Position numbers and translations under genes: made by a program
In this document: positions 29,336-29,769 of the stretch, one piece after another
Numbering within the stretch: the stretch's first letter is position 1
How the letters are laid out: each line of letters opens with the position of its first letter
IMG/VR virus record: IMGVR_UViG_3300032305_000413
Coordinates: 1 to 40,366 of that record
Origin: a virus
Taxonomy: Duplodnaviria > Caudoviricetes
DNA: 40,366 bases
Strand: one strand, 5' to 3'
The notes under the pieces: model-generated
Seen by the model: the letters and a program-made list of their open reading frames with translations, nothing else
Databases searched by the model: none
Told to the model about the DNA's origin: nothing

Positions 29336-29686
29336 ATGAAAAATAACAGACCAGAGTTTCATCAAGTAGTTGACGAGATTGCTAGTAAGAATAGATACAA
29401 CAAAGGGCTAACGGTTTTCGTACTTAAGTACAACCCATCCCTATGGGACAAGGCTATCTGCCGAGGCATTGACACTGAAATTTTCTACCCAGCCCAGGAG
29501 TTATTTACTCGTGACGAGGAGCGCATGTTTGAACGCATGTGCAATGAGTGTCCAGTCATGATGGCTTGTTTAGAGTGGGGTTTAGCCCATGAAAGGTACG
29601 GAGTTTGGGGTGGCACTACACCACCAATGCGACACAAAATTCGTAAGCGTATAGGCTGGGGTTTGACAGACCCACAGCATAAGTAA
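29336..29686 (+). CDS. whiB: WhiB-family Fe-S transcription factor
   Basis: W..A.C...D.E.F, CNECPV...CL and GVWGG motifs. Confidence 0.92.
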   Translation: MKNNRPEFHQVVDEIASKNRYNKGLTVFVLKYNPSLWDKAICRGIDTEIFYPAQELFTRDEERMFERMCNECPVMMACLEWGLAHERYGVWGGTTPPMRHKIRKRIGWGLTDPQHK

Positions 29687-29692
29687 TAGACT
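29663..29692 (+). promoter_or_regulatory. Housekeeping-sigma-type promoter for the candidate sRNA
   Basis: TTGACA (29663-29668)-N18-TAGACT (29687-29692); the predicted +1 near 29699 is the first base of a hairpin. Confidence 0.7.
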
Positions 29693-29698
29693 TATCTA

Positions 29699-29769
29699 GC
29701 ACACAAGCGAGAGTTTGTGTGCATAGAAAAGCCCAGCGATTCTCTCCTGTCTCGCTGGGTTTCTCTATG
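29699..29769 (+). ncRNA. Candidate anti-RBS small RNA (two hairpins; the second doubles as a bidirectional terminator)
   Basis: GCACACAAGC-GAGA-GTTTGTGTGC, then an 18-bp stem with loop TTCTCTCCTGTC complementary to the early-gene GACAGGAGA motif. Confidence 0.65.

Follow-up and report, generated by a model that had tools for sequence, protein, structure and literature searches.

The window analysed here is a complete virus record of 40,366 bases with direct terminal repeats, in which two gene arms converge. The rightward early arm (24184-29686) consists of small genes running from a SprT-like gene to whiB (29336..29686, + strand; PHROG 472, Pfam PF02467), the last early gene. The leftward replication arm encodes an exonuclease, a helicase, a primase, a sigma factor and a dNMP kinase, and its convergent end, comprising a 72-amino-acid ORF and the dNMP kinase gene (29772..30561, - strand), meets the early arm at a hairpin locus. 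The capsid and terminase share 65% and 46% identity, respectively, with those of E7 and F5, described as cultured phages of Ca. Planktophila (PMC10202952), and from this we infer that the host is a freshwater actinobacterium (Ca. Nanopelagicales). A genome scan with WhiB returned seven distant WhiB loci and did not find the host. No tRNA was detected by a tRNA scan of the window, and no repressor or integrase was matched in PHROGs among 48 ORFs. Searches for CsrA, Hfq and RegA gave no match in the ORFs scanned (48 against PHROGs, 16+38 against Pfam), small ORFs of unassigned function remaining.

A promoter-like site lies at the end of whiB (29663..29692, +), with a -35 hexamer TTGACA (29663-29668) within whiB codons, an 18-nt spacer and a -10 hexamer TAGACT (29687-29692). 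The site had been proposed in the initial annotation, all of whose coordinates for it check. It is the top-scoring of 22 promoter-like hits in 22000-40366, a scan which yields fewer hits than its shuffles (22 versus 28.6). Searches with WhiB provided 269 related loci (the window and duplicates counted), of which 268 could be parsed; these comprised 147 distinct loci, or 146 once one from an unrelated context (L075) had been removed. A TAnnnT -10 element accompanied by a TG extension or a TTG -35 element is found at the whiB stop in 144 of these 146 loci as against 4.2% of control windows, by a rule defined after inspection of the sequences, and the same rule holds in 67 of 69 tree representatives. 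The -10 hexamer takes 27 spellings across the related loci, the promoter-like site being kept while its letters vary. It is positioned at or after the whiB stop, and the -35 is encoded by whiB Leu-Thr codons; in one clade, TTGACW followed by TATAAT stands directly ahead of the hairpin. The promoter looks like one of the host housekeeping type and could fire early in infection. Helices start about 7 nt after the -10, so that the predicted +1 is the first helix base in many clades. Placing the +1 at 7 nt past the -10 in the window gives a predicted small RNA of ~70-75 nt (29699..29772, +), both of whose ends are putative. Judged by sequence conservation, this unit has a promoter-like site and a probable terminator of its own, as a trans-acting small RNA would.

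The predicted RNA contains two hairpins. The 5' hairpin (29699..29722, +) has 10 pairs, one of them G·U, and a GAGA loop, in keeping with the 10-bp GNRA hairpin originally placed at about 29699; base 29722 is common to it and the second stem. It is an optional domain, being longer and equipped with a conserved purine loop in many relatives and missing in others. A 9-nt version of this purine loop, AAGGGGAAG, is kept in the A, T and Z lineages as the stem changes (L014, L078, L088, L165 and L190), and is possibly a protein-binding or tertiary site. The main hairpin (29722..29769, +) is preceded by an A-tract and followed by a U-rich tail. The 18-bp stem described in the initial annotation lies where it was placed, but its pairing is imperfect, with 16 Watson-Crick pairs, one G·U and one A·C mismatch. 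The 12-nt loop assigned to it was found at 29740-29751. The open loop with the mirror of the tag discussed below extends over 29740..29752 (+), with a seed at 29743-29752 and an unpaired probability of about 1 at most positions. Folding z-scores for the region 29690-29790 are -6.3 on the plus strand and -5.5 on the minus strand.

Both loop and stem are conserved. The loop core CTCTCCTGTC is invariant in all 72 loci of the window's type. Across 28 distinct hairpins, 314 of 314 cells of the main stem are paired, with two-sided changes in 8 of 12 pairs, counts which are inflated by the relatedness of the sequences; slid controls of the same alignment pair in only 23-53%. When oppositions within the core stems of 41 distinct hairpins are read on the plus strand, 24 internal G·U are encountered versus three A·C, two of the latter arising from misregistered rows, and inclusion of pairs between the A-tract and U-tail brings the count to 36 versus 23. 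Since G·U exceeds A·C in the core stems, the plus strand is favoured as the one that folds. The main hairpin probably doubles as a terminator for both converging arms, with interrupted U-tracts on both strands, although it was not called by a terminator scan, the loop limit of which is 8 nt. No family in Rfam 15 matched anywhere in the window at gathering score, the sole match being a generic hairpin hit to mir-1954 (25 of 99 bits).

The loop mirrors a sequence at early ribosome-binding sites. The 10-mer AGACAGGAGA is present in four copies on the plus strand (26807, 27018, 27206 and 28280), each ahead of a start, and in one on the minus strand, which is the loop; about 0.04 copies per strand would be expected of any given 10-mer. 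The mirror is thus a single copy in the genome, held in a hairpin loop away from any gene start. The four exact sites, all listed in the initial annotation and all confirmed, precede ORFs 26822 (26807..26816), 27034 (27018..27027) and 28296 (28280..28289), each with a predicted pairing energy of -17.3 kcal/mol, and ORF 27224 (27206..27215; -17.1 kcal/mol). Three of the partial sites also proposed stand as described: 9 nt before the SprT-like gene 24184 (24167..24175; -16.6 kcal/mol), 8 nt before ORF 25936 (25920..25927; -13.5 kcal/mol) and a tag with one G·U before ORF 25273 (25256..25265; -16.6 kcal/mol). The site before ORF 24941 (24924..24932; -14.9 kcal/mol) had been credited with one mismatch but has a G·U wobble instead. 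A bulged tag before ORF 27517 (27498..27508; -13.7 kcal/mol) was absent from the earlier list. All these sites are on the plus strand. The claim that the capsid, scaffold, nozzle and holin ribosome-binding sites do without the extension holds for the capsid and scaffold sites, which were the ones checked.

With loop pairing scored as bare duplex energies and ranked over 58 starts, early genes make up nine of the top ten. Nine of 19 early starts reach -13.5 kcal/mol or beyond, versus one of 39 others (RusA), and so the proposal of a shared tag stands but not its extension to the whole early regulon. Pairing energy alone is not specific, the RusA start at 33104 (-) having the strongest predicted pairing of all starts (-18.3, bulged and GA-rich) and internal sites reaching -16.7 to -17.4. 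Small GA/UC-rich hairpins were also seen in early leaders (24879-24905 and 25226-25250, +) and ahead of the exonuclease gene (36419-36455, -).

Among the related loci, tag and loop change together. Loci with a TCCTGTC (A) loop have 371 GACAGGA versus 4 GACTGGA tags at early starts, whilst the 51 loci with a TCCAGTC (T) loop have 90 GACTGGA versus 1 GACAGGA. Counted locus by locus, where the upstream sequence is 2.5 kb or longer, the cognate tag outnumbers the other in 49 of 49 cases for the A loop and 33 of 34 for the T loop; one locus with an A loop, L076, was dropped when the motif search missed it. Orthologous genes swap their tags accordingly: one family has the A tag in 18 of 19 members from A loci and the T tag in 3 of 4 from T loci, and in another the tag is T, Z or C-like according to whether the locus is of the T, Z or C type, the Z type being a single locus. 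Two-loop RNAs with an extra seed occur in 13 loci, where a GACGAAA tag is found seven times in 25 kb versus once in the 448 kb of the A and T loci. Finally, in a blind test the commonest 7-mer of the start regions had its mirror within the first 130 nt beyond whiB at 42 of 69 loci (two of the matches being spurious), as against an average of 0-10% for controls from the other class, and 24 of the 27 misses were due to an unrelated array word. The prediction of the initial annotation that loop and early ribosome-binding sites would co-vary in relatives is therefore borne out by the A and T counts, the ortholog swaps and the blind test. Two-loop versions with two different seeds after whiB were noted in L252, L258, L264, L271, L232, L259 and L173; in L232 the second loop and its stem mirror 13 nt of the ribosome-binding site of a 292-amino-acid gene, which is T-tagged in T loci.

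The large tag counts stand for few events, as the switch between A and T needs just 1-3 changes on a short WhiB tree (123 columns, on which the A label needs three changes, one of them forced by starred branches). Perhaps three to five independent seed-tag events have occurred, the C and Z cases included. Exceptions were also encountered. Four loci with the loop ACCAGTC, in which an edge letter is changed, retain GACTGGA tags (9 versus 1), L154 combines a T loop with one A tag, and no tag matches the D-type loop in the 4.3 kb of upstream DNA that its four loci provide. Seeds D, E, F and Y are uninformative, having short upstream DNA or words common in other classes. An exposed seed which co-varies with its targets, as expected of a base-pairing small RNA, is nevertheless present, albeit with few independent events and one counter-case.

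The tag must be distinguished from a separate abundant word, TTAAGAC, which occurs 49 times against about 7.5 expected and is dense in the early arm, often at gene borders or directly before ATG (24281-29778 and genome-wide). Three of the four exact tag sites overlap it, the exception being 26807, as do 224 of 378 A tags (59%), in which the word alone supplies the GAC; the other 154 of 378 lack TTAA. In T-type relatives the array word GTTTAAAC or GTTTAGAC replaces TTAAGAC, yet T-locus tags still open with GAC. In the early arm GAC stands in front of 331 of 501 AGGAG starts; in the replication arm it is outside the eight commonest triplets (at most 7 of 188). Tagged starts number 371 in 266 kb of early arm versus 2 in 314 kb of replication arm. 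The distance of T tags from the ATG spans 0-17 nt, so that they are not a fixed-position ribosome signal. Four TGTGA-N6-TCACA palindromes (24078, 25161, 25830 and 26736, +) each have a TTGA-type hexamer 10-12 nt downstream, and at all four of these early promoter sites the first gene that follows is tagged. The palindromes resemble CRP/GlxR boxes, and they parallel the ESAS inverted repeats of Cluster K.

In E7 and F5 the loop is found in another place. The A tag is present at seven and six early-arm starts in these phages, respectively, plus three replication-arm starts. There is one mirror away from the tags, in a 12-nt loop on an unrelated stem, and it lies in the leader of the exonuclease operon. 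This leader hairpin lacks a U-tail and is followed 10-14 nt downstream by a tagged ribosome-binding site, and throughout the clade it is the mirror, and not the tag, that appears on the strand of the operon behind it. A search with the F5 sigma factor gave 80 loci, 39 of which reach the exonuclease start; the leader hairpin is found in all 39 on varied stems, each of -24.7 kcal/mol or better and picked by eye among weak false hairpins. The loop of one of them (L322) is identical to that of the window. AT-only palindromes were observed in L279 (31380-31730) and L280 (32640-33000), where the tagged ribosome-binding site lies ~12 nt past the mirror hairpin and could form a cis pseudoknot.

A similar arrangement exists in Cluster K mycobacteriophages. 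Start-associated sequences (SAS), with one reversed copy, were described in K1 phages in 2011 and are given no function in the available text of Pope et al. (PMC3203893); in 2024 they were still termed ill-defined (PMC11373665), and they are reported from Microbacterium cluster EF as well (PMC7302621). The tag of the window is likewise an asymmetric ribosome-binding-site motif extending beyond the Shine-Dalgarno core of non-structural genes only, and its sole reversed copy stands apart from the gene starts. Like the SAS of Clusters K and EF, it is a private conserved tag over the ribosome-binding sites of many such genes, often behind inverted-repeat promoters. It differs in belonging to another phage family and in its sequence, being a 9-10-mer distinct from the 13-bp SAS consensus. 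The hairpin loop that holds the reversed SAS in Angelica, Validus, Amelie and Adephagia has 10-11 nt, and the SAS papers, as far as their available text goes, do not describe this hairpin (PMC3203893, PMC11373665, PMC7302621). In Angelica, the one whole genome, there are 17 forward SAS sites and the loop is of 10 nt. Of nine Cluster K phages (all of Angelica, ~16-kb right-end stretches from a further seven, and 3.6 kb of Adephagia), four have the mirror core in a loop, two have a degenerate C/U loop and three have nothing; the mirror is thus degenerate or missing in five of nine phages that retain SAS. Late transcription of Adephagia appears to start between genes 92 and 93 (PMC11373665), the interval in which its mirror hairpin sits; the same source gives gp39 as Hfq-like. 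A ~300-nt structured leader, partly annotated as a hypothetical gene, lies behind a conserved TTAGACT in all nine Cluster K phages (L122, 28560-28830; L153, Adephagia record 58578-58880), and no Rfam match was obtained in the three Cluster K stretches scanned. The K1 hairpin is inside this leader, whereas that of the window is a free-standing unit, and covariation of tag and loop is seen in the relatives of the window but not in Cluster K. Three Streptomyces BF phages (L281, L282 and L283) have an SAS-like tag of their own, CAAGGG(G)AGAG, which precedes 7-9 early genes, together with a partial, mostly paired mirror upstream of the first early gene; a clean open-loop mirror was not found in these three.

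These observations suggest, with a probability we would put at about 0.7, that a promoter-driven RNA pairs through its loop with the tagged ribosome-binding sites and represses the early mRNAs as a set. The reading brings together the tag-loop covariation, the single mirror copy, the conserved plus-strand structure and the conserved promoter-like site. A stable RNA of 70-75 nt would be transcribed from the promoter-like site by the whiB stop, and its open loop would pair in trans with the tagged ribosome-binding sites of some nine early genes. Such pairing, of 7-10 bp between loop and single strand, would probably proceed without Hfq; since a 12-nt loop would be strained by a helix of 10 bp, 7-9 bp or an opened stem top seems more realistic. 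Because the seed covers the Shine-Dalgarno core, the predicted effect is repression, with ribosome loading blocked on all tagged messages at once, and build-up of the RNA would turn the early proteins down as infection proceeds. As the hairpin probably terminates both arms too, the ends of read-through early mRNAs could supply the same loop.

It may be that there is no separate small RNA and that the antisense loop works only when carried at the 3' terminus of the early mRNA, or on a piece cleaved from that mRNA, in feedback on early translation. The hairpin does close the early arm, the -35 can be accounted for by the Leu-Thr codons of whiB, and in the E7/F5 clade and the K1 phages the hairpin belongs to a longer leader. 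We nonetheless consider this unlikely, given a -10 at or after the whiB stop which is kept as TAnnnT through its 27 spellings in 144 of 146 loci, with helices beginning ~7 nt later. Somewhat less probable again is that a CsrA- or RegA-like protein of phage or host reads the tag, the minus-strand loop being a decoy or autoregulatory site. The minus strand folds too (z -5.5), the replication arm ends at the hairpin, and in both A and T types the minus strand displays an ANGGA-type loop, as in the CsrA motif. Against a protein stand the G·U asymmetry in favour of the plus strand (24 versus 3), the conserved promoter-like site pointing along that strand, the two-loop RNAs which match two tags, and the failure to match CsrA, Hfq or RegA in the scanned ORFs. 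Furthermore, the adjoining operon in E7/F5 and the K1 phages carries the mirror, not the tag, on its own strand. In E7/F5 this occurs without a U-tail, which argues against both the decoy and a mere terminator, and so weakens the alternative offered in the initial annotation, namely a terminator only, with a protein bound by the minus-strand GGA loop.

The least probable of the readings considered, and one largely refuted by the covariation of tag and loop, is that the hairpin is a plain terminator acting in both directions, its loop matching the tag through chance or through copying at the DNA level, with the tag no more than TTAAGAC beside a Shine-Dalgarno sequence, or else a DNA operator. 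The convergent position, the A- and U-tracts on both sides and the 59% overlap of A tags with TTAAGAC speak for it. Terminator loops, however, are normally short and free to vary, and that of the window has 12 nt and is invariant. Tags in T loci still carry GAC although the array word there is GTTTAAAC, TTAA is missing from 154 of the 378 A tags, and E7/F5 keep the loop where there is no terminator. Alternatively the pairing is real but differs in sign or purpose, serving to titrate the loop, to set a ceiling on toxic early proteins or to exclude superinfecting kin instead of switching stage, for which we hold out about as little prospect as for a protein reader. In the E7/F5 clade a tagged ribosome-binding site lies directly after the hairpin, and tagged mRNAs could there free it from a cis pseudoknot; a housekeeping-like promoter could fire early; and in P1/P7, changes in the c4 seed define immunity groups according to PMC5320573. 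In the window, by contrast, no ribosome-binding site follows the hairpin and the seed lies over the Shine-Dalgarno core, making activation unlikely, and in Adephagia late transcription is reported to begin in the interval with the mirror hairpin (PMC11373665). The tagged replication genes of E7/F5 do not fit a pure early shut-off and, together with the housekeeping-type promoter of the window, they allow for dose control or kin exclusion as roles, while the hairpin positions in E7/F5 and Adephagia suggest stage switching.

If repression of the tagged early mRNAs by the RNA is the correct reading, the RNA of the window works like LhrC and c4 and appears to belong to neither. In c4 of P1/P7, as described in PMC5320573, loops pair with short sites and occlude ribosome-binding sites, and seed and targets change together, but there are three stem-loops, excision by RNase P and a target in the antirepressor operon of temperate phages. 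The predicted RNA described here consists of one or two hairpins, comes with a promoter-like site of its own and would have ~9 targets across the early arm, and neither the three-stem-loop motif nor the Rfam model of c4/CI antisense RNA was matched. LhrC1-5 of Listeria monocytogenes repress several mRNAs through a CU-rich loop and AG-rich Shine-Dalgarno regions; they are reported as host stress RNAs with generic anti-Shine-Dalgarno seeds (PMC5880928). In the window's system, by contrast, a lineage-specific extension of the target tracks the loop and both partners are phage-encoded. The phage-encoded base-pairing RNAs sar, OOP, aQ, PreS, VpdS and 24B_1 either work in cis as the antisense of one gene or target chiefly host mRNAs via Hfq, and no phage small RNA in the available text of the 2025 review that covers them addresses its own gene class through a shared ribosome-binding-site tag (PMC12197685). 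A sponge of the CsrB type is not indicated, as the single GGA loop lies on the strand against which the G·U pairs speak, and CsrA was not matched in the scanned ORFs. A literature search over the titles and abstracts of mainly open-access papers found no paper on such an RNA.

A wider proposal, at a little under even odds, is that actinobacterial phages run an RNA-addressed regulon, in which a barcode at the ribosome-binding site is read by a movable loop that damps the translation of one stage at the start of the next. The loop module would be a free small RNA here, a leader of the replication operon in E7/F5 and a leader of the late transcript in K1 phages. If so, an RNA-addressed regulon would be the long-sought function of start-associated sequences, and a concrete, testable one, for which cultured systems are at hand in Adephagia or Angelica in M. 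smegmatis and E7/F5 in Ca. Planktophila. The A, T and C pairs of seed and tag that occur in nature would then offer orthogonal parts with which to control several genes in actinobacteria. A whole gene class would be controlled, in phages of very abundant freshwater bacteria, by one small RNA and a self-made tag, a regulatory layer absent from the phage small RNA literature covered here.
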